NCBI GenBank assembly: GCA_929200535.1 | Contig: CAKMZV010000005.1 | Span: 12,442 to 76,441 of the forward strand | Origin: an uncultured Gammaproteobacteria bacterium | Lineage (GTDB): Bacteria; Pseudomonadota; Gammaproteobacteria; CAKMZV01 | DNA: 64,000 nt | Direction: 5' to 3' | Shown here: one piece after another, positions 33,890-48,629 of the stretch | Numbering within the stretch: the stretch's first letter is position 1 | How the letters are laid out: each line of letters starts with the position of its first letter | Program-made: the position numbers and the translations under genes | The notes under the pieces: model-generated | The model's input: the letters and a program-made list of their open reading frames with translations, nothing else | Told to the model about the DNA's origin: nothing | Database searches by the model: none

Positions 33890-34252
33890 TTAATTTAATA
33901 CTTTATAGCCTCGGTTTTTTAAACATTTTTTAACAATACTGCTTTCTTCTTCATCATTCTTTAAGGCTCCTAAAGCTGTTCCTTCAGTAGCTCCGATGGC
34001 AGCGTGTGTGCCGACATTTTCTGGGTCAATTAAGGCACCAAGAGTACCTCGAAGTAATGCCCCAAAACCCGCACTTTTGGCAATGTTCTTACCGCTTTCT
34101 AACTGCTCTGCGACTTGTTCGCATTCAGCAAGATCAGTTTTATAAGCATCTATATCGATACCTTTAGTGTCGATAACTGGGCGACTGGCACAGGATGAAA
34201 GCAGTAGTGTTGACAGGGCAATTATCCAAAAAATGAAATTTTCTTTAACCAT
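33890..34252 (-). CDS. lipoprotein with glycine-zipper motif
   Basis: Lipobox LLSSC, then GFGALLRGTLGALIDP...GTHAAIGATEGTALGAL glycine-zipper-like segment. Overlaps the dsbA stop. Confidence 0.5.
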   Translation of the reverse strand: MVKENFIFWIIALSTLLLSSCASRPVIDTKGIDIDAYKTDLAECEQVAEQLESGKNIAKSAGFGALLRGTLGALIDPENVGTHAAIGATEGTALGALKNDEEESSIVKKCLKNRGYKVLN

Positions 34253-34871
34253 TTTTTAGTAAATAATTAATTATTTTGAAGATCTCATCTTTTCCCCCGG
34301 CGGTTTTTTCAGAAACACGATACTTCCCTTTAACAATAAAAGAGGGAACGCCTTCAATTTCAGATTTTTCAGTTAATTTTTTAGCTTGGGTCATTAAATT
34401 TTTAACCGCAAAACTATTGTAGGTTTTAGTAACGGTTTCTTTGTCAACTCCAACGCTTTTGAAAATATCGAAAATATCTTCTTGCGAGCGTAGTTGACCA
34501 GAGGAATAACGCTTAAAAATCTCCCCTTGAAGCTCATTGTGTTTTTTCAGTACGAATGCGACGTAGTAAAGTTGGACTGACCATTTGACACGTGGGGAGT
34601 AAAAAGCAGGTTGGTAGTGAAAATTAACTGTAGATTGTTTTGTTTTTAACCACTTTTCAACATATGGGTGAATATTTTTACAATGAGGACAACCATAGTA
34701 AAAAAACTCCACAACCTCAGGTTGCTTAGTCAGCGTGAACTCATTCTTCGGAGGGATTTTAAGATAATGTTTCCCTTCAATATACTTTTCTGCATTGCCT
34801 GACAAAGCAAGCAAAGAGAGAGTAGTTAACAAGAATGCTTTTGATAAAAGTGAAAGTGTTTTTGTTTTCAT
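34245..34871 (-). CDS. dsbA: thiol:disulfide interchange protein DsbA (copy 1)
   Basis: Signal peptide, CPHC active site (FFYYGCPHCKN), DsbA fold length (208 aa). Confidence 0.85.
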   Translation of the reverse strand: MKTKTLSLLSKAFLLTTLSLLALSGNAEKYIEGKHYLKIPPKNEFTLTKQPEVVEFFYYGCPHCKNIHPYVEKWLKTKQSTVNFHYQPAFYSPRVKWSVQLYYVAFVLKKHNELQGEIFKRYSSGQLRSQEDIFDIFKSVGVDKETVTKTYNSFAVKNLMTQAKKLTEKSEIEGVPSFIVKGKYRVSEKTAGGKDEIFKIINYLLKNG

Positions 34872-35027
34872 AATATTATTCTATAAGGTTGTTTTGAAAA
34901 AATTAAATAAAAGTGTAGCCTACAGTTCTCCATTATATCGATACCTTTGGTGTCGATAACTGGGCGACTGGCACAGGATGAAAGCAGTAGTGTTGACAGG
35001 GCAATTATCCAAAAAATGAAATTTTCT

Positions 35028-35654
35028 TTAACCATTTTTTAGTAAATAATTAATTATTTTGAAGATCTCATCTTTTCCCCCGGCGGTTTTTTCAGAAACA
35101 CGATACTTCCCTTTAACAATAAAAGAGGGAACGCCTTCAATTTCAGATTTTTCAGTTAATTTTTTAGCTTGGGTCATTAAATTTTTAACCGCAAAACTAT
35201 TGTAGGTTTTAGTAACGGTTTCTTTGTCAACTCCAACGCTTTTGAAAATATCGAAAATATCTTCTTGCGAGCGTAGTTGACCAGAGGAATAACGCTTAAA
35301 AATCTCCCCTTGAAGCTCATTGTGTTTTTTCAGTACGAATGCGACGTAGTAAAGTTGGACTGACCATTTGACACGTGGGGAGTAAAAAGCAGGTTGGTAG
35401 TGAAAATTAACTGTAGATTGTTTTGTTTTTAACCACTTTTCAACATATGGGTGAATATTTTTACAATGAGGACAACCATAGTAAAAAAACTCCACAACCT
35501 CAGGTTGCTTAGTCAGCGTGAACTCATTCTTCGGAGGGATTTTAAGATAATGTTTCCCTTCAATATACTTTTCTGCATTGCCTGACAAAGCAAGCAAAGA
35601 GAGAGTAGTTAACAAGAATGCTTTTGATAAAAGTGAAAGTGTTTTTGTTTTCAT
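35028..35654 (-). CDS. dsbA: thiol:disulfide interchange protein DsbA (copy 2, identical)
   Basis: 100% identical protein to copy 1, within the second 783-bp repeat unit. Confidence 0.85.
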   Translation of the reverse strand: MKTKTLSLLSKAFLLTTLSLLALSGNAEKYIEGKHYLKIPPKNEFTLTKQPEVVEFFYYGCPHCKNIHPYVEKWLKTKQSTVNFHYQPAFYSPRVKWSVQLYYVAFVLKKHNELQGEIFKRYSSGQLRSQEDIFDIFKSVGVDKETVTKTYNSFAVKNLMTQAKKLTEKSEIEGVPSFIVKGKYRVSEKTAGGKDEIFKIINYLLKNG

Positions 35655-37526: not shown

Positions 37527-38411
37527 GTGTCTCTCCCTTGTGTTTTGAGTATAGGAGGTAATGACCCCACAGGTGCAGCTGGTTTGGCAATGGATGTGCG
37601 AGTTGGGCAGCGTTTGAATGTTCGAGTATTACCGATATTAAGTTGTTTTACAGTGCAGGATGGTAATACGGTTAGTCGAGTAGACTGGCTTTCTAAAGAA
37701 CAGTTTGAAGCCCAACTTGCGTCTCTTTTAAATAGTGGTAGGGAGTTGCCTCGAGTGATTAAAATTGGCTTGTTGTTAAGCCCTGATTTAATCGATAGTG
37801 TGGTTGATTTTTATCATACTATGACTCAAAAAAGTAAGGGTGAAATTTTTGTTATTTTTGATCCTATCTTAACCAATGGACAAGGAAGTCCCTTTTTTTC
37901 GAGTGAGGAAAATTTAACTGCGATTATAAATAAAATTAGGCATCGACTTTTGCCTATTTGTTCAGTCCTTGCACCAAATGAACAAGAATTTAAGCTTTTA
38001 ATAAAAGAAGATAATACCACCATGGAAAATTTGAACGACCAGGTTTCTGATTTAGTTCAAATAATGGCAACGTACCAAAATTTTATACCAATGTTAATTC
38101 TTAGTGGAGGGCATAGCGTAGATGAGGATTGTTATATAGTCAATCGGCTATTTTATCGAGAAGACAATCAGATACAACAACAAAAAATTAAACAAACCCG
38201 CTATCCAGGGGGATATCGTGGTACTGGTTGTGCTTTAAGCACTGCCACAGCTTGCGTTATGGCGAAACACCTGAATAATAATTCAAATACCCTTGAGTCA
38301 ACGACACAAAAAAAAATTATTCAAGAGGGCTTTGCTTTTGTTCACCATGCCGTGGAACAGACCCATAAAAAAACAAAATCGACTGATGAAAATCAGTTTT
38401 TAAATTTTTAA
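37527..38411 (+). CDS. thiD: hydroxymethylpyrimidine/phosphomethylpyrimidine kinase (ThiD/PdxK ribokinase-like)
   Basis: VLSIGGNDPTGAAGLAMDV N-terminal motif and C-terminal GTGCALSTA anion-hole motif. Confidence 0.75.
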   Translation: MSLPCVLSIGGNDPTGAAGLAMDVRVGQRLNVRVLPILSCFTVQDGNTVSRVDWLSKEQFEAQLASLLNSGRELPRVIKIGLLLSPDLIDSVVDFYHTMTQKSKGEIFVIFDPILTNGQGSPFFSSEENLTAIINKIRHRLLPICSVLAPNEQEFKLLIKEDNTTMENLNDQVSDLVQIMATYQNFIPMLILSGGHSVDEDCYIVNRLFYREDNQIQQQKIKQTRYPGGYRGTGCALSTATACVMAKHLNNNSNTLESTTQKKIIQEGFAFVHHAVEQTHKKTKSTDENQFLNF

Positions 38412-38414
38412 AGA

Positions 38415-40235
38415 GTGAAAAATCTATTTATGATAAATAATCGACTGCGAAATAAGCTGTCTTATCTCAAGTGTACTATTCTTTCAATAATGAAAAGTCC
38501 GCTTCAGACGCTGGTATTTCTTAAAAATATCAGGGGTGAGTCAGTATATGAAAATAAAAAACATATTGAATTGGCCACAGATTGGTTACTAAAGGCTCAA
38601 CAAGTCGGAGATGATCAAGGGTATTCAAGAGGGTTTTATTTGTACAAAGGTGGATGGGATAAAAGTTATATTGAAACAACTGGGTATATTATTCCAACGC
38701 TATTGAAGGTGAGCCGTACTTACAATAATAAAAAATATTATGACTCAGCTTTAAATGCTGGTCAGTGGTTGCTTTCTAAGCAAACTAAACAAGGTGGTTT
38801 TTGTGGTATTGATGCTTCGGATGAATTAGTCTTTGATACAGGGCAGGTGCTTTACGGGTTAGTTGCACTGTATGAGTTAGAAGAGAGTAGTCAAGATTTC
38901 AAATTGCAATATGAAACGGCGATAGAGAAGGCGGCAAGTTGGTTATGTGACGTTCAGGATGATGATGGTAGTTGGACTAAATATGGTTATGAGGGTATTG
39001 CTCACAGCTATTATTCCCGAGTTTCTTCGATTTTGTATCGTGTTGGAGAATTGATGAACAATCAAAATTATAAAGATTGTGCAGAAAAACATATTAATTG
39101 GGTCATTAGCCAGCAAAATGAGGTGGGTTTTTTTCAAAAATTACAATTTACTGCACAAGAAAAAAATAGTGTTTTACATTCGATTATTTATGTTTTAGAA
39201 GGATTATACGATTACTATTTAATGACAAAAAATGAGGTTGTTTTGCAATCAATGTTAAAGAATGCAGAGCAACTTAAACGCATTAACTTGGAAAGAGATT
39301 TATTGCTTGGTTCTCAATATGATGATAACTTCAATTGTGTCAATTCGGAAAGATGTATGACAGGATTAGCTCAATGGGCTGGATTAGCATTTAAGCTGCA
39401 TCAATTGACTAAAGATGAGGGCTATCTGCATTGTGCACGCAAAACAATATTTTATTTGAAGTCCAAACAATTTACAGAAGGGAAAGTGCGTGGAAGTTTA
39501 GCAGGATCAGTGCCTTTTTGGGGATTTTATGCTAAATTTCGGGCAATTAATTGGGGTGTTAAATTTTTTATAGATGCTCTTTTAGAGCATCAGAAAATGC
39601 CACTTTCATTAATTGAAGAAAGTGGTTTATGGATAGGAGAGTGTTTTAAGTTTAGCAATATGGTTGATGACAGATTAACAAGTACCTCGTATGAATATAT
39701 TAGTATTCTACAAAGCTATGTCGCTAATTCAGCAAATGTTTTAGATCTTGGATGCGGTCAAGGCAGGCATTTAGATTACTTTAGGGAGCAATTTCAAGAG
39801 AAAAACATTTTGGGGGTAGATCCTTACTATTATGATGGAAAAAAGGTGTTAGAAGGTGATGCGTATTGTATTAAAACAGATATAAAATTCGACTTAATTT
39901 ATACCATTGAAGCATTACAACATGTAAAATATCTTGATGTTGCCTTGGCTGAGATTCATAAAAAATTAGATGATAAAGGATACTTTATTATTTGTGATCG
40001 AAACCCTAATAGTTTGCTTGGCTACTTGAAGCCTATCCAAGAATGGCGTGGCAAATGGATGTACCCATTTGATAGCCCATTTCGGGAAAAATGGTACGGT
40101 ATTAAAAAATGGAAAAAAATTCTAAATGATAATGGTTTCTTAGTAGAAGATATAAAGACTTTTACAGGAAAAAATGGTCGTTTTGGTTGGTTCAGCAGAT
40201 ATAGTGTTATTGTCGCAAGAAAAAATAATGGTTAA
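38415..40235 (+). CDS. two-domain protein: N-terminal (alpha/alpha)-toroid-like repeat domain + C-terminal class I SAM-dependent methyltransferase
   Basis: N-terminal ~400 aa show recurring A..WL...Q..DG.W / GGW / GGF elements as in terpenoid cyclase, prenyltransferase or C5-epimerase toroids. C-terminal VLDLGCGQGRHLDYF motif I and downstream motif II of class I methyltransferases. Confidence 0.6.
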   Translation: MKNLFMINNRLRNKLSYLKCTILSIMKSPLQTLVFLKNIRGESVYENKKHIELATDWLLKAQQVGDDQGYSRGFYLYKGGWDKSYIETTGYIIPTLLKVSRTYNNKKYYDSALNAGQWLLSKQTKQGGFCGIDASDELVFDTGQVLYGLVALYELEESSQDFKLQYETAIEKAASWLCDVQDDDGSWTKYGYEGIAHSYYSRVSSILYRVGELMNNQNYKDCAEKHINWVISQQNEVGFFQKLQFTAQEKNSVLHSIIYVLEGLYDYYLMTKNEVVLQSMLKNAEQLKRINLERDLLLGSQYDDNFNCVNSERCMTGLAQWAGLAFKLHQLTKDEGYLHCARKTIFYLKSKQFTEGKVRGSLAGSVPFWGFYAKFRAINWGVKFFIDALLEHQKMPLSLIEESGLWIGECFKFSNMVDDRLTSTSYEYISILQSYVANSANVLDLGCGQGRHLDYFREQFQEKNILGVDPYYYDGKKVLEGDAYCIKTDIKFDLIYTIEALQHVKYLDVALAEIHKKLDDKGYFIICDRNPNSLLGYLKPIQEWRGKWMYPFDSPFREKWYGIKKWKKILNDNGFLVEDIKTFTGKNGRFGWFSRYSVIVARKNNG

Positions 40236-40730
40236 AATGGTTAAGCGTGAATTTAGGTTACGATGTTCTAAACCATACTAATATACATTTATGGAATAAT
40301 CAACACACTTTTTTATAATCTGGCTTTAAATATATTTGCTTGATAAGTACTTTAAATGCTAATTTCTTCATCTTCTAACTCTCTTTTTTTTCAATACATT
40401 CATTCAAGAATCTAAAGTTGGATTTGTTTTTCTTTTCTGTGACGATGAACGATAAGAAAGACCGCATCTGACCTTAATTTGCTTTTGCTAACTTTCTGTT
40501 TTCTCATAAGCCACTGATTTTATTTAAACTCCAATCGGATTGTTCTGAGGTTTTTAAGATTTTACTAACTAATTAAATTGAGTGTAGGTTAGAATGGATA
40601 TAGAAATTGAGGGTTATCGAGTATGTGGTTAACAATCTTAAGAAGTTATAAAAATTTACAGTAAATTTGCGAAATATACTTCAAAAATAGACTTGAGATT
40701 AAAATTATCTGCCAAATTCGCCATTAAATT

Positions 40731-41512
40731 TTGAATTTATTCTTTGCTATACAAAGTACAACTATATATATGAAAAAAATAACACAAATATATGCAAATA
40801 TCTCGAGACAAATATTATATTTTTCATCTAAATATTTTGGATATTATTTATATAGATGTATTAAAAAAATCATTCTGCCAATGTGGAAGGGAGATGCACA
40901 TCTTAGTTATGTCATCCATTATCCTCTTTTTATACAAGGGAATACAATTAACCAAATTGAACATTTTAATTTTTATGAAGGATTGTTTGAGAGTCGTTCA
41001 GTTACATCTTTAGATAAGTTTTTTAATTGTTTTCCAGTATTTAACAAAGCTGTTTTTATAGGTGTTAATATATGGAACATATTGTCGATTTTTTCAAGAT
41101 AGGTTTTTATCAGCAGATTTATACGAACCTCATCCTAAAACATACAATGATTTATTAGAGAATATAGTTTTAAATGGGGCTGAAAAAAACAGGCGATACA
41201 AATATCTGCTCACCCTGAAAAAGCAATCCTTTATGAGGTACCAAATTCATTTGGCTCTAATTCATTAATTTCAGGATATCCTAAGTCAAACAGTTCAATT
41301 ACAGTAGATACCATACCAATTACCCATATTGATAATAATGCTAATTTGTATTTTATTGATGCAGAAGGATTAGATGTTAAGATAGTTGAGCAGTTGATTC
41401 CACATACATCCAAAGAAACTATTTTTATTTTTGAAGTAGATACACATGATAACTTTCTTGAATTTGATTCTCTTATCAAAAAATATCAAAATCAAGATTG
41501 GTTTTATTTATA
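40731..41512 (+). pseudogene. decayed FkbM-family methyltransferase gene (frameshifted fragments)
   Basis: Three frames carry FkbM-like pieces, including the C-terminal FIDAEGLDVKIVEQLIPHTSKETIFIFEVDTH (compare LKIDIEGAE..VL.G). No intact ORF over 123 aa. Confidence 0.45.
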
Positions 41513-41655
41513 GGATAATGGAGAAAAGAAATATTTTTATGAATAATAAAAATCTAAATTAAATAATGCAACGAAAGTTCCAATCTCAAAATAAAGATAG
41601 ACAAAATCTGTTGAAAGTGCGATAAGGATTGTAAAAAAAAGCTTTACAATCTGAA

Positions 41656-41827
41656 GAGACCATCTCTATTAAATATGACCCGTGTAAAAAAGCGAGAAAT
41701 TCTTCCTAATTTTATCAGCAAGCTATTTAAACAATCATAAATTTGCCAAGAATAAAAACACTTTTTGTTGTCTCACTGGAGGGATTTTTTAATTTTTTTC
41801 TATTATCTCATATTTAATAGAGGTAGC
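41656..41827. mobile_element. MITE-like element, family B copy 2
   Basis: Same termini (ctctattaaatatg...catatttaatagaggtagc) and subterminal module as 3778-3936. Left end begins gagacc as in family A. Internal segment ccaagaataaaaacactttttgttgt resembles the family-A internal module. Confidence 0.6.
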
Positions 41828-41967
41828 TTATAATATCTTAGAAGGCTACGAAGATTACTTATAAAGTACGACATTTAAAAATTGACAAATACACCCTTAC
41901 CCTCAAAACCTCCAAGAAAGAAATTTCATCACAAAATGGTTCATGATTTGAGCTATAAAGTATCGCT

Positions 41968-43470
41968 ATGAATAAATGTTTAGATGCTGTTATTTTAGCG
42001 GCGGGATTTGGTTCAAGGTTACGACCGATGACACTTGAAAAACCAAAAACTTTAATTGAGGTTGGTGGTATTCCTATGCTGGAGTATATCTTAAATTCCT
42101 TAGCTAAAAATGGTGTTCAAAATGTCTTTATTGTTGTTGGCTATCAAAAAGATAAAATTATTCAGTTTTGTAAGGATAATTTTTCAAATCTACATTTTAG
42201 ATTTATTGAAAATCCCATTTATTTTGAAACTAATAATATGTATAGTCTGTATCTCGCTAAGGACTATTTAATTAACGATTTCTATTTGATGAATGCGGAT
42301 TTAGTTTTCGATAATGAAGTTATTACTCGGCTTTCAAAAACAGATAAAACTAGCATTGCTGTTAAAAAAGATGTTTATCTTGAGGAGTCAATGAAAGTAA
42401 AAGTTAATGAGGGGAAAATAGCCAACATATCTAAATCAATCAGCTCGAAGGAAGCGTATGGTGTAAGTATTGATGTTTATAAAATTATTAAAAAAGATAT
42501 TCCTATTATCAAATCAGAATTAGATGAAATCATTGATGTTGATAAAAATTTACACCAATGGACAGAAGTAATGTTGGATAATTTATTTACAAAGAGAGCG
42601 ATTGATGCAATCCCCTGTGATGTTTCTTATTTAAAATGGTTTGAGATTGATAGTTACGAAGACCTATTAAATGCAGAAACTTTATTTAATGAAAACTTAT
42701 GTTTGCTCAAAAGAAAAAAAATATTTTTTGTTGATGGAGATGGCACTTTAATCCTTGGAGATAAGATTATTAATGGAGCTAATGATTTTTTAAATGTACT
42801 GAAACAAAAAAACAAACTTACATTTTTATGTACTAATAACTCTTCAAAAACAAAACATTCTCATTTGAAAAAATTCAATTCTTTAAATCTAAATATAGAC
42901 AATGTTTTAGATTCTTTAGATTGTTCGTTGGATTATTTAAAATCAAAAAAAATAATGAATGTTGGGCTTTTATCAACAAAAGAGGTAAAAGAATATGTTT
43001 TGGAAAGAGGTTTTAAAGTTGATTTGAAAAATCCCCAAGTTGCATTATTGACTTATGATAATTCCTTAACTTATAAGAAATTAATCTCGTTTATAAATTT
43101 GGTAAGAAAAGGTATTCCTTATTATGCGACTCATGCTGATATTTTATGTCCAACTCAAAATGGTCAAATTCCAGATATAGGTTGCTTTATTGATATGATT
43201 AAAAGTTCTACTGGAATTTATCCAGAAAAAGTTTTTGGAAAACCATCAATAGATTTGATAAAATCAACTTTAGATAAGTTGTCGTTAAAGGAATCCGATG
43301 CTGTTGTTATTGGTGATAGACTTTACACAGATATTGCAATGTGTAAGGATAATCAACTAACGTCAGTTTTAGTTTTAAGCGGGGAAACGAATAGAAGTAT
43401 GTATGAAGGGTCAAACATAAAAGCAGATATTATTCTTGATTCTGTAAAGGATTTAATTAAGTATTTCTGA
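41968..43470 (+). CDS. bifunctional LicC-like CTP:phospho-alcohol cytidylyltransferase / HAD-IIA-family hydrolase
   Basis: N-terminus AVILAAGFGSRLRPMT...ETNNMYSLYL strongly resembles LicC-type nucleotidyltransferases. C-terminal ~250 aa has HAD motif I FVDGDGTL plus motifs II-IV (GKP, GDRLYTDI) of subfamily IIA. Confidence 0.75.
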   Translation: MNKCLDAVILAAGFGSRLRPMTLEKPKTLIEVGGIPMLEYILNSLAKNGVQNVFIVVGYQKDKIIQFCKDNFSNLHFRFIENPIYFETNNMYSLYLAKDYLINDFYLMNADLVFDNEVITRLSKTDKTSIAVKKDVYLEESMKVKVNEGKIANISKSISSKEAYGVSIDVYKIIKKDIPIIKSELDEIIDVDKNLHQWTEVMLDNLFTKRAIDAIPCDVSYLKWFEIDSYEDLLNAETLFNENLCLLKRKKIFFVDGDGTLILGDKIINGANDFLNVLKQKNKLTFLCTNNSSKTKHSHLKKFNSLNLNIDNVLDSLDCSLDYLKSKKIMNVGLLSTKEVKEYVLERGFKVDLKNPQVALLTYDNSLTYKKLISFINLVRKGIPYYATHADILCPTQNGQIPDIGCFIDMIKSSTGIYPEKVFGKPSIDLIKSTLDKLSLKESDAVVIGDRLYTDIAMCKDNQLTSVLVLSGETNRSMYEGSNIKADIILDSVKDLIKYF

Positions 43471-43684
43471 ACGTTTTTGGATTGCCAGAGGGGGGAACAA
43501 GTGGGTTTTGTTTACTTATTAAGTGAAACGATTATGCAACTTTTCTGTAGGATTCATTTTCGGTATCGCAAAGTATAAGAGCTTTACGTTTTTGACACAA
43601 AATAATTTAAGTTATAATGTATAGGTACGCTAAAACAATGTTAGCTATATTACATATTATTAGCTATATCATATATTTCAAAAA

Positions 43685-44422
43685 TTGAATACCCCTCTCC
43701 CAAAACCTCAAAGAAGGAAATTTCGTCAAGAAACAGTTATTCACAGCTATATTGTTCGCCCCTTGGCACAAGAGTTAGTTTTGTGGATTTGGAATACTAA
43801 CATTACCCCAAATCAATTAACATTTAGTCGCTTAATTCTTGGTATTATCTATCTCTACTTATTTACGCTTGGTACTGCAAGTGGTTTTATTATAGGCATT
43901 GTTCTTTTTCAAGTGGCTGAAATTATTGACCATGCTGACGGTATGTTGGCTCGCCTCAAAAATCAAACAAGTAAGTTGGGTCAGTGCTACGAATACATCA
44001 TTGATGAATTGTTTGCAATAGAAAGTGGACTTTTAGGTTTAGCAATAGCTTATGGAGCTTATCAATATGGAGCAAATATACTATTTATTTATCTTGCCGT
44101 TGCCGTTCTCTATGTTCATTATTTTCACTGGTATATTAAGTTGAAAATTAATCTCACTGAGAAAGATACTAATAACAAAATGTCTATGGATCACGATGGA
44201 GAGACATTATTACGGATAATTGGTGTGCCGTTTAAACAATCTTTGTTTAACGCTTTAAGAACGATAAATTGTTGGCGAAATCAGTTGTATTTTGTCGGCA
44301 TTATTGGTTTGCTTTGTGGGGCAGAGTTAACACTAATAGCGACTTTTATAGTGTTCCTTTTGCTTAATTTGCTCCGTACAGCTATACAATTAAAAGAAGG
44401 CTATACAAGGCATAAGGAATAG
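43685..44422 (+). CDS. CDP-alcohol phosphatidyltransferase family protein
   Basis: DHADGMLARL...G...YIIDE matches D-x2-DG-x2-AR...G-x3-D-x3-D. 5-6 TM helices. Confidence 0.75.
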   Translation: MNTPLPKPQRRKFRQETVIHSYIVRPLAQELVLWIWNTNITPNQLTFSRLILGIIYLYLFTLGTASGFIIGIVLFQVAEIIDHADGMLARLKNQTSKLGQCYEYIIDELFAIESGLLGLAIAYGAYQYGANILFIYLAVAVLYVHYFHWYIKLKINLTEKDTNNKMSMDHDGETLLRIIGVPFKQSLFNALRTINCWRNQLYFVGIIGLLCGAELTLIATFIVFLLLNLLRTAIQLKEGYTRHKE

Positions 44423-44704
44423 AAGAGTCTGTAATTATGTGTGGTTGGTTATCGCTATTCACTGTGAGCCGTGAAAGAAGGCGAAAATCTATCCCCAATT
44501 TTATTAATAAGCATTTCAAACGCTGTTACTTTAAAAATCGAAAAAAATTAGGCTGCCCTAAAGCAATTTCTTATTATATTCGTACAAATAAAAGTTTACG
44601 TAATTTAGTTATCAGGTTGGTGAAAAATCATAACAAGAATTTTAGGAGTATTGAACGCGTTCTATTAGACTTGTTTTTTAAAGAACAACACTCAGGAGAA
44701 AAAT

Positions 44705-45463
44705 TTGAATTCTAAGTTGATTGATGCTCTTTTTAAAGAAAGAGTTTATTATAGTGTGCGTGATAAGGTTTATAACAAAGAGGGTAGTTACCTAAAAGAT
44801 TTTGTTTTAGATACTGAAATTATGCAGGATATAGGTATTCCACCTAAAATAATTGATGTTCCAGTTGCTCTTAGAGAGCTTACGGTTATTAAAAAAACGT
44901 TTGAAGAATTTCATCTTCCTATTTTTTTTATGTTTGGTACTTGCTTAGGGGCCATAAGAGAAAAGGGATTTATCAAACATGATAAAGATATTGATATTGG
45001 CACTTATGGGGAAAATATAGATAAGATTATTTTAGCGATTCTAAAGCTCAGAGATGAGTGTCAATTTAAGGTTACTAAATTAGCCGTAGATGATACAGTA
45101 ATTAGTCTTTTAAAAGATGCTGTAGTTATTGATATTCATCTTTTTCATAATTGTTCTTCTTATTGGAGTAGTTGTAATAATTTTTTCCAAATACCCTATC
45201 ATCATTTATCTGAGCTAACCGAAATTGATTTTTTGGGAATTAAAATGAATGTGCCTAATTACGTTGAGGATTATTTAGAATATCAATATGGTAGTAACTG
45301 GCAGATACCAGTAGAAGGTTTTTATTCCTACCCTAATAGAGCTAAGCGTATATCTAATAAAATCTTTGCTCCTATTCTGGGAAGTAAAGTAGCGGGTTTT
45401 ATTTCTAACATAGTTTCGTGGTTTGTCAAAAAATTACAAAATTTTCGTCGAAAGTTTCGTTAA
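44705..45463 (+). CDS. licD: LicD-family phosphotransferase (phosphocholine/phospho-alcohol transferase family)
   Basis: LicD/FKTN nucleotidyltransferase-fold motifs (FGTCLGAIRE, KHDKDIDIG). Confidence 0.75.
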   Translation: MNSKLIDALFKERVYYSVRDKVYNKEGSYLKDFVLDTEIMQDIGIPPKIIDVPVALRELTVIKKTFEEFHLPIFFMFGTCLGAIREKGFIKHDKDIDIGTYGENIDKIILAILKLRDECQFKVTKLAVDDTVISLLKDAVVIDIHLFHNCSSYWSSCNNFFQIPYHHLSELTEIDFLGIKMNVPNYVEDYLEYQYGSNWQIPVEGFYSYPNRAKRISNKIFAPILGSKVAGFISNIVSWFVKKLQNFRRKFR

Positions 45464-45535
45464 ATGAGAGGTGTTTGGTATAGTAGCCATTAACCTATTT
45501 CGCTATGGCTAATACTTGATATTTAAATAATCTTT

Positions 45536-46813
45536 ATGTTGGGATATTCCGTCATACTCAATTCATCAGTCACTTTTGTTGTCTTATGTTTAAATTTTGG
45601 GCTCAAAATTTATTTAGCTCAAGAGTTTTCACCAGAAAATCTGATTATTTACTACACCATACTGGATATTTTTTCAATAATCACTCGTTTCTTTGATGGC
45701 TATAAGGATGCCATTATTACAACTTATAGCAAAACAAAACATAAGCTTAAAATGCTCAAAACCTGTTGGGTATTTTTTATGTGGATGGTTTTAATTATTT
45801 CGTTTATAGTCATTCCATTAGTGTTAAATTTTTACTTAGTGCAAAAAGTGGAGAATTTAGATATTAAATGGTGGTCCCTTTCTTTGTTGTTTATGTTGAT
45901 GAGTTTTGTGGCTTATTATTTACGTATGTTATTATTGCATAGAGATTATAAAATGATCTCGGTTATTGATGCCTTAAAAGTGGTTCTGTTTATTTTAAGT
46001 GTTGTTATCTTATATCATTTTTTAAAACAAGAAGCAACTTACAAGACGCTAATTTGGGCGAGTATTTACGCAAATATATTGGCATTACTCTATCTTATTT
46101 ATTATCATAATCGAGTTTTTTCTCGTTATCAAATTGTCCAAAATATTAGCTTGTGTTTTGCTAAATTTCAAGATGATAGTAACCGAGCTTTTATTCAAAA
46201 AACTATTTTAGCGAGTGCAAATTCTTTTACTTATGGGTTATTGCTGTTTGCCCCAGTTTTTGTGATGTTAAATGCAAATGATATTGAGCAGTTATCGAAT
46301 TTTCAAGTGGTTGCAAGAGCGATTTTTTTTGCACTTATTGCTGTTTTTTCATTTCCGCTTGGGCGTTTTATGTTTCCTGAATTTGCTTCAAAATTAGAAA
46401 AAAAAGAATATGCTTCTTTGCTAAATATACGTAAAAAATTTATTAAGCTACTGATGCTTTTTGGTTTTTTTGCAATTGCATTGTGTTGGCTTTTTTCTAA
46501 ACAGTTTGTGCTTTTGCTTTTCCCTATGGAATATGGAAATAGCTATATAATGCTTAATATTTTAATCGTTTCCTTACCTTTCATACTGTACCAAAACTTT
46601 TCTGAGTCAATTATTAAATCTCAAGGTTTATATACAAGGAGCCTACTGATTAAAGGATTTGGAGTAATGAGTTTTATAGGTAGTTACTTAGTGTTAACTC
46701 ACTTGGCTATTGAGCTGGCTTCAATCTACGCTTTGATGATGGGTTTTTTCGGCGTTTTTGTGTCTTCGTTAGGTTTTGAGAGATTAGAAATAAGAAGGTG
46801 GGGAACGATATGA
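45536..46813 (+). CDS. polysaccharide flippase (Wzx-like, MOP superfamily)
   Basis: 425 aa, ~12 TM helices, typical hydrophobic architecture. Sits in a glycan gene context. Confidence 0.65.
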   Translation: MLGYSVILNSSVTFVVLCLNFGLKIYLAQEFSPENLIIYYTILDIFSIITRFFDGYKDAIITTYSKTKHKLKMLKTCWVFFMWMVLIISFIVIPLVLNFYLVQKVENLDIKWWSLSLLFMLMSFVAYYLRMLLLHRDYKMISVIDALKVVLFILSVVILYHFLKQEATYKTLIWASIYANILALLYLIYYHNRVFSRYQIVQNISLCFAKFQDDSNRAFIQKTILASANSFTYGLLLFAPVFVMLNANDIEQLSNFQVVARAIFFALIAVFSFPLGRFMFPEFASKLEKKEYASLLNIRKKFIKLLMLFGFFAIALCWLFSKQFVLLLFPMEYGNSYIMLNILIVSLPFILYQNFSESIIKSQGLYTRSLLIKGFGVMSFIGSYLVLTHLAIELASIYALMMGFFGVFVSSLGFERLEIRRWGTI

Positions 46814-47967
46814 TGATATGGTTTTTAACGCGTTCTTTAAGCCCCTATCAATCCACTGGAGGTGGGCAAATTAGGCTTGCACAAGCCAATCATTTAGAGA
46901 AATTAGGTTGGGAGGTGAAAATAATTATGCCTAATTATCAAGATGAAAAAATCAATATTATAGGCAATGTTACTCAAATTCCGCACACGAAAAATTATCA
47001 CTTATCTAAAGCGTTTCAACATCTTGGAATCTATGAGGATTATTTGGACGTTTGGGTTAAGAAAAGTTTTTTGTATCTAAAAGATAAAATTAAAAAGCAA
47101 GATATTGTATTTGCAACCAGTGGTGGTGAATTGGCAATGGTTAAACTTGGGTATTTGCTTAAACAAGAAGTAGGTTGTAAGTTGGTAATTAATTTTCATG
47201 ATCCTATTAGTTATGGGGATATGAATGGTTTAAGAATAAATAATAAGTTTCATTTTAGTAGAGAGAGGGTGCAGCAAAAGTATGTTAAAGAGGCTGACTT
47301 TATAATTACTTCATCGCAATATTATGCCGAATTCTTAAAACAAAAGTTCCCGATATTGGTTAATCAAATTGAAAACAATTACTTTGGTTACATTAAGAAA
47401 TTTCCCCTTCCAAAAAAATTAGCAGGGCAGTCTAAAAAATTACGGATTGCTTATGCGGGTTTAATGAGTAAAGCCCAAGCACCAGAATTACTTTATCAGG
47501 CTTGGCAAACATTAAGAGATTTTGATATAGAAATTTATTTTATTGGGGATTCGCAAAATTATAAACCACTAAACCATATTTCAAAGACAAAAGGCTGTCA
47601 TTTGGTACCTTTAATGCCTTATGAGCAATTTTTAAGCTTTATGGTGAAAAATATTGATGTCGGATTTGTTAGTCTATCCAATGACTATTATGGGGCTTGT
47701 GTGCCTTCTAAAATTTATGAATATATTAATTTAGGACTCCCTATGTTAGCTGCTTTACCTGCTGGGGATGGTATGGATATTATTAATGAAAATAATTATG
47801 GTGTCGCTTGTGATTACAAAAATACGGCAGCCTTAAAAACAAGTCTGCAAAAATTTAAAGATCAGAGGTTTTTGAATAGTATTCAACAGTCTGTATTACA
47901 AGATAGAGAAATATGGGCAATGGACTCTCGAATTTTACAGTTAGATAAGGTGCTTAAAAAGTTATAA
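46798..47967 (+). CDS. glycosyltransferase, GT-B fold (group 1 / GT4-like)
   Basis: Two Rossmann-like halves, C-terminal E-x7-E-like region. Overlaps the flippase stop. Confidence 0.65.
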   Translation: MGNDMMIWFLTRSLSPYQSTGGGQIRLAQANHLEKLGWEVKIIMPNYQDEKINIIGNVTQIPHTKNYHLSKAFQHLGIYEDYLDVWVKKSFLYLKDKIKKQDIVFATSGGELAMVKLGYLLKQEVGCKLVINFHDPISYGDMNGLRINNKFHFSRERVQQKYVKEADFIITSSQYYAEFLKQKFPILVNQIENNYFGYIKKFPLPKKLAGQSKKLRIAYAGLMSKAQAPELLYQAWQTLRDFDIEIYFIGDSQNYKPLNHISKTKGCHLVPLMPYEQFLSFMVKNIDVGFVSLSNDYYGACVPSKIYEYINLGLPMLAALPAGDGMDIINENNYGVACDYKNTAALKTSLQKFKDQRFLNSIQQSVLQDREIWAMDSRILQLDKVLKKL

Positions 47968-48002
47968 AAAAACGATCGTATTAAATTTTCAATTTAGTTA
48001 TT

Positions 48003-48629
48003 ATGCTGCTTACAAGTATGAAGTATCGTTCTTTGTACCTTATTTATAATGTTGAAGAGAATAATTTTCAGATTGACTGGCAGGTTTTTCTTCGAGTTTT
48101 GAAGCGTGGGGTTTATTGTGTGCAGTATCGCTCTAAAGGGAGTTCTTTTGAGTTTGATTATCGTTATGCGAGAAAGGTGCAGAAGATTTGTTGCCGTTCA
48201 CGTACACCTTTCGTGATTAATGATAGTCTTAAATTAGCTCGTCGAGTGCGTGCAGATGGCATACATATTGGTCAAGAAGATGGGAAATTATCTTTTATTA
48301 AAAAGCAATTAAATTGGCGGGCAAGAGGGTTTAAGGGTCGTTTACCGATAGTGGGTGTAAGTTGTTATAATCACCTTGCTCTTGCTATCAAAGGAAAAAA
48401 GGAGGGGGCAGATTATCTTGCTTTTGGTGCATTATTCCCCTCCCCAACGAAGCCTGATAAGGAAACGGTGTCTTTTCAAGTAGTGAAAAAAGCAAACAAG
48501 CTTGGTCTTCCTACGGTGGTTATTGGAGGTATTAACTCATTGAATCTTCGTTATGCAAAGAAAACTCATGCAAATGCTTATGCAATGATTAGCGGTATTA
48601 ATGGGATAGATGATAAAATTAATTTTTGA
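48003..48629 (+). CDS. thiE: thiamine-phosphate synthase
   Basis: Colinear with E. coli ThiE (..RSK....INDSL.LA....ADGIHIGQED..., GVSCYN, ADYLAFGALFPSPTKP, PTVVIGGIN). Confidence 0.8.
   Translation: MLLTSMKYRSLYLIYNVEENNFQIDWQVFLRVLKRGVYCVQYRSKGSSFEFDYRYARKVQKICCRSRTPFVINDSLKLARRVRADGIHIGQEDGKLSFIKKQLNWRARGFKGRLPIVGVSCYNHLALAIKGKKEGADYLAFGALFPSPTKPDKETVSFQVVKKANKLGLPTVVIGGINSLNLRYAKKTHANAYAMISGINGIDDKINF

Follow-up and report, generated by a model that had tools for sequence, protein, structure and literature searches.

The 64,000-nucleotide window that we analysed, from contig CAKMZV010000005.1 of an uncultured Gammaproteobacteria bacterium, contains a gene for a two-domain protein in which an α-helical toroid at the N-terminus is fused to a class I S-adenosylmethionine (SAM)-dependent methyltransferase at the C-terminus. 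We consider the chances about even that this fusion protein works in the cytoplasm as a bifunctional enzyme that tailors a lipid-linked sugar in a surface-glycan or glycolipid pathway, one encoded on a horizontally acquired phospho-glycan island, with the toroid binding or converting the sugar and the methyltransferase methylating it. In the pathway as we propose it, an activated phospho-head group would come from a nucleotidyltransferase-HAD enzyme and be attached by a CDP-alcohol phosphotransferase and a LicD protein, a GT4 glycosyltransferase would add a sugar, and a Wzx-like protein would export the product. On the cytoplasmic side of the membrane, the toroid would bind a sugar residue of the membrane-anchored, lipid-linked intermediate and most likely alter it non-hydrolytically in the manner of an isomerase or epimerase, as its nearest structural neighbours do, and the fused methyltransferase would then methylate the same residue. 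The original prediction, made from the DNA sequence alone, had suggested that the protein tailors a sugar or a polymer, and this role fits the genomic context.

The open reading frame (ORF) has exactly the predicted extent of 606 amino acids with a GTG start. Public calls of the same protein place the start at ATG 38430 (601 aa) or ATG 38490 (581 aa). A length of 601-606 aa is likelier because the N-terminal helix is kept among homologues. A word-indexed homologue search with the full protein (E ≤ 1e-3) found at least 498 homologues, of which the best 120 are all 543-612 aa long with Pfam matches in both halves and 39-63% identity. The fusion is carried by Nitratiruptor, Lebetimonas, Nautiliaceae and other Campylobacterota, Vibrio kasasachensis, Oligoflexia, Bdellovibrionota, a Nitrospirae metagenome-assembled genome, and Methanosarcinales. 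Using the toroid half alone in an exhaustive phmmer search over 1.84 billion representatives (50% identity), we found 1,805 proteins at E ≤ 1e-3, 1,024 at 1e-10, and 462 at 1e-30. This is a real gene, far beyond what chance would give. Among the best 150 toroid representatives, 99 are standalone proteins of 340-460 aa, 23 carry the type of methyltransferase found in the window, and 19 are longer than 620 aa. The pairing of the two domains, described in the original prediction as uncommon, is therefore a recurrent one. The fusion is a conserved subfamily of a large toroid family comprising roughly 1,000-1,800 clusters at 50% identity in bacteria and archaea. Pfam annotation of 20 longer representatives (504-1035 aa) showed further fusion partners of the toroid, namely GT4, which can lie on either side of it, GT2, WecG/TagA, LicD together with GT4, and Formyl_trans_N. 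The arrangement with a C-terminal Formyl_trans_N domain recurs, both in haloarchaeal proteins (P0240, P0242, P0248) and elsewhere (P0466, P0469, P0504, P0506). We found nothing relevant to the fusion, or to the toroid in polysaccharide loci, in the literature searched.

The N-terminal 400 or so amino acids had been described as toroid-like, and structure prediction agrees. The full-length AlphaFold2 model, built from a 52-sequence alignment, has a predicted local distance difference test (pLDDT) score of 95.3 and a predicted template modelling score of 0.93, and the toroid half modelled alone has a pLDDT of 96.4. Assignment of secondary structure with DSSP gave 12 helices within residues 47-392 that start at residues 47, 86, 106, 139, 160, 198, 217, 254, 274, 315, 335, and 379 and are arranged as six hairpins in a closed (α/α)6 barrel. 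In the model the toroid and methyltransferase domains are packed rigidly together. We compared the toroid with structures in the PDB using Foldseek. The top match was 3wiw, a heparin-specific unsaturated glucuronyl hydrolase of family GH88 (E 3.7e-9, template modelling (TM) scores 0.67/0.72), which was also the top structural match in a second Foldseek search. It was followed by glucose and cellobiose 2-epimerases, an N-acetylglucosamine (GlcNAc) 2-epimerase-family protein, mannose isomerase, and YihS, and then by GH8-like, GH76, GH9, and GH127 barrels. TM-scores to the GH88, AGE-superfamily, GH8-like, GH76, and GH9 barrels were 0.60-0.72. The top 50 matches of the toroid did not include GlcE, DSepi1, LanC, or squalene-hopene cyclase. 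By predicted shape, then, the nearest relatives of the toroid are proteins that act on sugars and not on isoprenoids.

A likeness to terpenoid cyclases and prenyltransferases had been proposed from repeated A..WL...Q..DG.W elements. These are real QW-type repeats that lie on four of the 12 helices (W57/L58/Q62; W118/L119/Q123/G127/F129; W176/L177/Q181/G185/W187; W229/Q234/G238/F240) and are invariant or nearly so in 40-52 homologues. Their presence explains why public annotation labels these proteins as squalene cyclases or prenyltransferases. In this respect the toroid resembles the squalene-hopene cyclase and prenyltransferase toroids, and the Pfam profile SQHop_cyclase_C matches the N-terminal half above its cut-off (39.7 versus 26.1 bits), with a profile match to residues 464-590 of squalene-hopene cyclase. 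This leads to one alternative, namely that the toroid acts on an isoprenoid, such as a polyprenyl carrier or a hopanoid-like lipid, which the fused domain methylates. We regard this as highly improbable. The matches span the QW repeats only, and squalene-hopene cyclase is a two-domain β-γ protein with a DxDD motif whereas the window protein has a single toroid. No DxDD is conserved among the homologues; where the window protein has Q181-D-D-D-G, the family consensus has QExDG. Among the Foldseek matches of the toroid alone there is a class II terpene synthase, SsDMS, but only at ranks 34-43 with TM-scores of 0.41-0.49, well behind the sugar enzymes, and none of the loci that we examined contains isoprenoid genes. 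The proposed likeness thus holds for the repeats and not for the structural neighbours, which are GH88 and AGE-type sugar enzymes, or for a catalytic DxDD. Protein prenyltransferase β subunits were also rejected as relatives; the Prenyltrans profile has no match in the window protein and is sub-threshold in 31 of 52 homologues. As for a prenyltransferase-type zinc site, there is one invariant cysteine (C314) with no conserved aspartate two residues before it.

Conservation in the toroid extends well beyond these repeats. Alignment of 40 sequences reaching down to 29% identity, including haloarchaeal standalone proteins at 29-34%, contains 41 invariant columns. This includes Y85, E87, T88, F140, T142, G143, Q144, H197, Y199, H255, Y259, C314, G317, Q320, N379, W380, K383, and D387. 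D141 is invariant within the fusion subfamily only. The invariant polar residues lie in the first turns of the helices that begin at 86, 139, 198, 254, 315, and 379, which are the N-terminal ends of alternate helices. In six-hairpin enzymes these ends form the active-site funnel where sugars are bound and converted. We infer from the model that the invariant polar residues of the toroid face such a funnel.

The C-terminal domain had been predicted to be a class I SAM methyltransferase, and the evidence for this is consistent. Methyltransf_23 matches residues 438-577 (E 9.6e-17, 61.6 bits, cut-off 27), and there are further Pfam matches to Methyltransf_11, _31, _12, and _25. The segment VLDLGCGQGRHL at residues 442-453 lies inside the Methyltransf_23 match. 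Across 52 sequences D444, G448, G450, E499, Q502, and R529 are present in all, G446 and H503 are each present in 51, and every sequence has D or E at the position of D469, the acidic residue that follows strand 2. In the AlphaFold2 model strands and helices alternate over residues 441-603 as in a Rossmann-like fold. Judged from these motifs, the SAM pocket is intact. The original prediction had named two findings that would refute it, a missing toroid fold and a SAM pocket that is not intact; we looked for both and saw neither. The domain shares its Rossmann fold, GxGxG motif, and acidic residue after strand 2 with generic class I methyltransferases (Methyltransf_23/11; BioC, UbiG-like enzymes, and plant N-methyltransferases). 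It is set apart from them by its permanent attachment to the toroid and by a conserved segment of its own, R529...K-W548-M549-Y550-P..D553-S554-P-F556..E558-K-W560 (DRN...KWMYP.DSPF.EKW). Foldseek matches of this half include BioC (8x8j), 3ccf, 3l8d, and DnrK-type enzymes; carboxyl methyltransferases are among the matches of the domain, namely BioC (8x8j, TIGR02072) and trans-aconitate methyltransferase. The best sequence matches in solved structures are N-methyltransferases (the tetrahydroprotoberberine, coclaurine, and pavine enzymes, BamL, and phosphoethanolamine N-methyltransferase), all weak at 30-39 bits.

We wished to know in what company the toroid is encoded. We fetched 81 loci, called ORFs, clustered their products, and annotated representatives with Pfam. 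Neighbours were counted within six genes in 74 of these loci, 17 with the fusion and 57 with a standalone toroid. A search for the fusion in other polysaccharide loci had been recommended in the original prediction, and all 17 fusion loci proved to be glycan-assembly loci, as did every other toroid locus examined. In the fusion loci, the CDP-alcohol phosphotransferase (cluster c8) and a weakly Wzx-like membrane protein of about 425 aa (cluster c9) are each found in 11 of 17, and GT4 is also recurrent. WecB (UDP-GlcNAc 2-epimerase) is found in 35 of the 74 loci, comprising eight fusion loci, in six of which it directly adjoins, and 27 standalone loci. A dehydrogenase that resembles UDP-ManNAc dehydrogenase by its N-terminal motif is found in 17 (3/17 fusion, 14/57 standalone). 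WecG/TagA occurs in four standalone loci, adjacent in all of them, and GT4s are frequent there too.

The commonest immediate neighbour of the standalone toroid is an FkbM-type methyltransferase, present in 19 of 57 loci, 15 of which have it right next to the toroid gene. In two Patescibacteria loci the family-specific methyltransferase lies directly upstream of the toroid gene, as a separate gene in one (L024) and as part of another protein in the other (L027). Fusion, fission, and adjacency thus tie two unrelated methyltransferase families to the toroid, which is good evidence that toroid and methyltransferase are a functional couple.

The genes for the CDP- or CMP-activated head group vary among these loci. 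L005 and L017 have a module of IspD with SDR (CDP-ribitol-like), L009 and L013 have a TagD-like cytidylyltransferase, L004, L007, and L016 have a phosphonate trio of phosphoenolpyruvate (PEP) mutase, decarboxylase, and iron-containing alcohol dehydrogenase, L001 has an NTP-transferase with a CobD-like decarboxylase and a small separate methyltransferase beside the decarboxylase, and the window has an NTP-transferase with HAD-IIA. The fusion stays constant while the module changes, suggesting that it most likely acts on a constant sugar or lipid core and not on the variable head group. The same observations bear on a different proposal, that the methyltransferase N-methylates the amine of a phospho- or phosphono-head group (ethanolamine, aminopropanol, or 2-aminoethylphosphonate type) to a choline-like product while the toroid holds the head group or carrier. 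The matches to N-methyltransferases are in keeping with this, as are an alignment of the family segment IEvLQH over IETIEH of tetrahydroprotoberberine N-methyltransferase, whose residues we take to be catalytic in the plant family, and the amine-bearing head groups made by several fusion loci (the PEP-mutase trio, the CobD-like decarboxylase). However, the N-methyltransferase similarity is weak, the fusion is equally present with the amine-free CDP-ribitol and CDP-glycerol modules, it also occurs in the window beside the NTP-transferase-HAD module, and the locus with the CobD-like decarboxylase has its own small methyltransferase. We judge head-group N-methylation to be unlikely. As a separate observation, in L021, L022, L026, and L027 as well as in the three fusion loci named above, the toroid gene has beside it the genes for a PEP mutase-cytidylyltransferase fusion, a phosphonopyruvate decarboxylase-like protein, and an iron-containing alcohol dehydrogenase, and some of the glycans or lipids made by toroid loci thus probably carry a phosphonate head group.

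The closest functional analogy that we can suggest for the window fusion is a pair of archaeal proteins. The product of aglQ in Haloferax volcanii is a soluble protein, and the gene is co-transcribed with the adjacent aglP, which encodes the SAM methyltransferase of the fourth sugar (PMC3827465). Both AglQ and AglP are required for one methylated hexuronic acid of a lipid-linked N-glycan, and AglP methyl-esterifies that hexuronic acid (PMC3827465). AglQ is predicted to be an isomerase or epimerase with the structural homologues 2d5j and 2zzr (GH88), 1fp3 (AGE), and 2afa (YihS) (PMC3827465). The resemblance lies in the pairing of a cytoplasmic helical toroid with a SAM methyltransferase and in structural neighbours from the same groups. 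In the window, unlike in Haloferax, both activities would reside in one polypeptide, and the sugar of AglQ is a hexuronic acid whereas the window island has no uronate-forming gene. A second analogy is Agl32 (VNG1058H) of Halobacterium salinarum, a single helical toroid of 372 aa that is a D-glucuronyl C5-epimerase and, by genetics and nuclear magnetic resonance, converts glucuronic acid to iduronic acid in a lipid-linked tetrasaccharide (PMC12624080, PMC13308652). The structures closest to that of Agl32 are cellobiose 2-epimerase, mannose isomerase, and GlcNAc 2-epimerase, whose catalytic residues it lacks (PMC12624080, PMC13308652). Agl32 is like the window toroid in being a single α-helical toroid with matching structural neighbours and unlike the fusion in having no methyltransferase attached. 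Haloarchaeal members of our toroid family are annotated as prenyltransferase/squalene oxidase repeat proteins, whereas VNG1058H is reported to have no predicted function in NCBI (PMC12624080, PMC13308652). Agl32 and the window toroid are thus probably members of different families, as judged from annotation. We considered Methanococcus MMP1085 (methylated hexos-5-ulose sugar) as a further precedent and dropped it; the review names a methyltransferase only and gives no domain information.

Enzymes of the AGE superfamily (cellobiose, glucose, and N-acylglucosamine 2-epimerases, mannose isomerase, and YihS) have an (α/α)6 barrel of equal size, with TM-scores to the toroid of 0.60-0.69, and carry out non-hydrolytic sugar conversion at the barrel mouth. 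Sequence identity to the toroid is 8-15%, and AGE enzymes act on free sugars outside glycan-assembly loci whereas the toroid family is encoded inside such loci. The catalytic set of the R. albus AGE enzyme is H184, E187, H243, and H374; the window toroid has invariant H197 and H255, which are possible counterparts. GH88 enzymes (3wiw, 2zzr, 1vd5) provide the best fold match, with a single six-hairpin domain of about 370-400 aa. They are catabolic, whereas the toroid family appears from its context to be biosynthetic and is fused to cytoplasmic transferases. Nonetheless, the toroid could be a GH88-like hydratase, or could act on a 4,5-unsaturated or uronic sugar, with the methyltransferase capping the new hydroxyl or the carboxylate to yield a methylated sugar of an unusual kind. 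The rank of 3wiw in both Foldseek searches, the carboxyl methyltransferases among the matches of the C-terminal domain, the methyl-esterification that accompanies AglQ, and the UDP-ManNAc-dehydrogenase-like gene in 17 of 74 loci are all compatible with this. Yet that dehydrogenase is present in only three of the 17 fusion loci, the window island has no dehydrogenase or lyase-type gene, and the Pfam GH88 score of the window protein is 16.1 with a cut-off of 26.6. We consider GH88-like chemistry very unlikely.

Several results weigh against a sugar-converting toroid. No member of the toroid family is characterised, the Pfam and NCBIfam copies that we searched contain no family-specific model for it, and it is the modelled fold and the conservation alone that suggest catalysis. 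The toroid half has sub-threshold Pfam matches to LANC_like, Pec_lyase, C5-epim_C, GH88, and a TED domain, all of the six-hairpin clan, and no GlcNAc_2-epim (AGE) match is reported for the window protein or among the families listed for 52 homologues. With C5-epim_C below its cut-off, the originally suggested likeness to C5-epimerases was not upheld. Two candidate relatives were rejected. The GlcE-type D-glucuronyl C5-epimerase (PF06662) scored 17.5 bits with a cut-off of 23.3, and the model has no counterpart of the β-hairpin and β-sandwich domains that this enzyme has beside its helical domain (PMC13308652). A LanC-like cyclase scored 21.6 bits with a cut-off of 23.2, and the toroid has one invariant cysteine only in place of Cys-Cys-His zinc ligands. 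A fragment of AglQ comprising residues 28-123 only, rebuilt from published mutagenesis primers, scored 6.8 bits against the hidden Markov model of our family and aligned to a different hairpin, with 22% in hhalign. We therefore put forward the likeness of AglQ to the toroid as one of function, not of family membership. The window island also has no WecB or UDP-sugar dehydrogenase by island gene annotation, leaving a uronic-acid or ManNAc substrate unsupported for the window copy.

A toroid module that is joined to many different enzymes would suit a substrate-recognition domain equally well, and this provides the main rival to our proposal. Here, the toroid would be a non-catalytic module that presents a lipid-linked acceptor, for instance a sugar-pyrophosphate-polyprenol or glycolipid head group, and the methyltransferase would be the sole enzyme. 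Fusion to six unrelated catalytic kinds (class I methyltransferase, GT4, GT2, WecG/TagA, LicD, and formyltransferase) is typical of an adaptor, QW repeats also occur in prenyl-binding toroids, and two invariant basic residues, R72 (in the fusion subfamily) and K383, might serve to bind phosphate. Against this, two in three of the best representatives stand alone, every one of the nearest solved folds belongs to an enzyme, and the His, Asp/Glu, Cys, and Lys residues of the canonical catalytic face, which stay invariant in sequences as distant as 29% identity, look more like an active site. We therefore hold a pure recognition role to be possible but rather doubtful. A bolder form of the sugar-converting proposal is that the toroid half belongs to a pan-prokaryotic family, so far unrecognised, whose members are cytoplasmic enzymes that epimerise or isomerise carrier-mounted sugars. 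The family would be a bacterial functional counterpart of AglQ and Agl32, and in the fusion the toroid would pass its product straight to a built-in methyltransferase. The candidate catalytic set would then be E-T, (D)-T-G-Q, H-x-Y, H...Y, C, and N-W-x-x-K-x-x-x-D. We offer this tentatively, with confidence well short of even.

The features of the gene and of its surroundings are listed in Table 1. The fusion gene begins 3 nucleotides past the stop codon of thiD and opens an island (38415 to 47967) that closes at thiE, and the gene order thus bears out the predicted position as the first gene of a glycan island directly after thiD. Both bordering genes belong to thiamine biosynthesis. The GC content is 0.26-0.32 within the island and 0.35-0.42 in the flanks. 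For the RecA encoded on this contig, the closest named relatives are gammaproteobacterial, from Methylophaga, a Solemya symbiont, and Thiolapillus (73-77%), whereas those of the fusion are from Campylobacterota (56-60%). On these sequence comparisons, the simplest reading is that the island was gained by horizontal transfer into an uncultured marine gammaproteobacterium. Compared with related loci the island is pared down, with one each of GT4, LicD, CDP-alcohol phosphotransferase, and flippase-like protein. The nucleotidyltransferase-HAD gene, whose first part is of the sugar/alcohol-phosphate nucleotidyltransferase kind, holds the slot that is filled elsewhere by CDP-ribitol, CDP-glycerol, phosphonate, or amino-alcohol activating modules, and its product presumably makes an activated head group (CDP/NDP-X). 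The very basic ORF before the LicD gene is probably not a gene.

Table 1. Features of the toroid-methyltransferase gene and of the island between thiD and thiE (window coordinates)
Feature	Position	Strand	Basis or remark
thiD-like HMP/HMP-P kinase, left island border	37527..38411	+	Pfam Phos_pyr_kin E 7e-30; TIGR00097
Toroid-methyltransferase fusion gene	38415..40235	+	GTG start, 606 aa; ORF as originally predicted
(α/α)6 six-hairpin toroid domain, residues ~41-395	38535..39599	+	AlphaFold2 models, DSSP, invariant columns, Foldseek
Linker helix joining both domains, residues 399-413	39609..39653	+	DSSP on model
Class I SAM-dependent methyltransferase domain, residues ~415-606	39657..40232	+	Pfam, Foldseek, conservation
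SAM motif I, V442-L-D444-L-G446-C-G448-Q-G450-R451	39738..39767	+	Conservation
Stretch without credible ORF, 1.7 kb, GC 0.26-0.30	40236..41967	.	ORF and GC scan
Nucleotidyltransferase fused to HAD-IIA phosphatase-like domain, 500 aa	41968..43470	+	Family matches
CDP-alcohol phosphotransferase family membrane protein (cluster c8)	43685..44422	+	Family match; locus clustering
Very basic ORF, 92 aa, between CDP-alcohol phosphotransferase and LicD genes	44437-44715		No family match
LicD-family phosphotransferase	44705..45463	+	Best NCBIfam match is Mycoplasma Mf1 cholinephosphotransferase, below cut-off
Multi-pass membrane protein, 425 aa (cluster c9), weakly Wzx/Polysacc_synt-like	45536..46813	+	
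GT4 glycosyltransferase, last island gene	46798..47967	+	Family match
thiE (thiamine-phosphate synthase), right island border	48003..48629	+	

The gap that follows the fusion gene has the lowest GC content of the region. Two pieces of it (about 41122-41187 and 41292-41447), collinear on the + strand and in different frames, gave weak matches (E 1.4e-3 and 3.6e-4) to FkbM profiles built from the neighbours of standalone toroid genes. Searches of the gap by tblastn with all neighbour proteins gave weak matches only, and Pfam found nothing on the concatenated translation. The gap may be a decayed FkbM methyltransferase gene, mirroring the adjacency of toroid and FkbM genes seen elsewhere. An 18-nucleotide direct repeat, CTTAAGAAGTTATAAAAA, occurs at 40637-40654 and 47953-47970 with 94% identity, and its two copies flank the low-GC part of the island, one inside the gap and the other where the GT4 gene ends; the repeat may denote a cassette boundary or have arisen by chance in AT-rich DNA. 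Outside the island, the window contains a tandem duplication (34151-35654) with 783-bp spacing in which 300 nucleotides (34151-34450 and 34934-35233) are 100% identical. It yields two identical 208-aa ORFs on the - strand (34245-34871 and 35028-35654) that resemble a periplasmic thiol-disulfide oxidoreductase, with a CPHC motif read by eye. This duplication is either very recent or an assembly artefact. Rfam found nothing in the window, and promoter and terminator scans were uninformative.

Epimerisation and methylation of assembled sugars shape antigenicity, phage receptors, and envelope properties, and for most glycans the enzymes responsible for such post-assembly changes are unknown. Public annotation mislabels the toroid family as prenyltransferase or squalene-cyclase proteins. 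The methyltransferase fusion serves as a Rosetta stone in that it links the toroid to a methylation step and would place both activities on one soluble protein. If the toroid is catalytic, it would represent a new family of sugar-converting enzymes that work at the level of the glycan, and many annotations would be corrected. If the pan-prokaryotic epimerase reading is true, the family would explain how many surface glycans with unidentified biosynthetic genes come to contain rare sugars that are methylated or epimerised.

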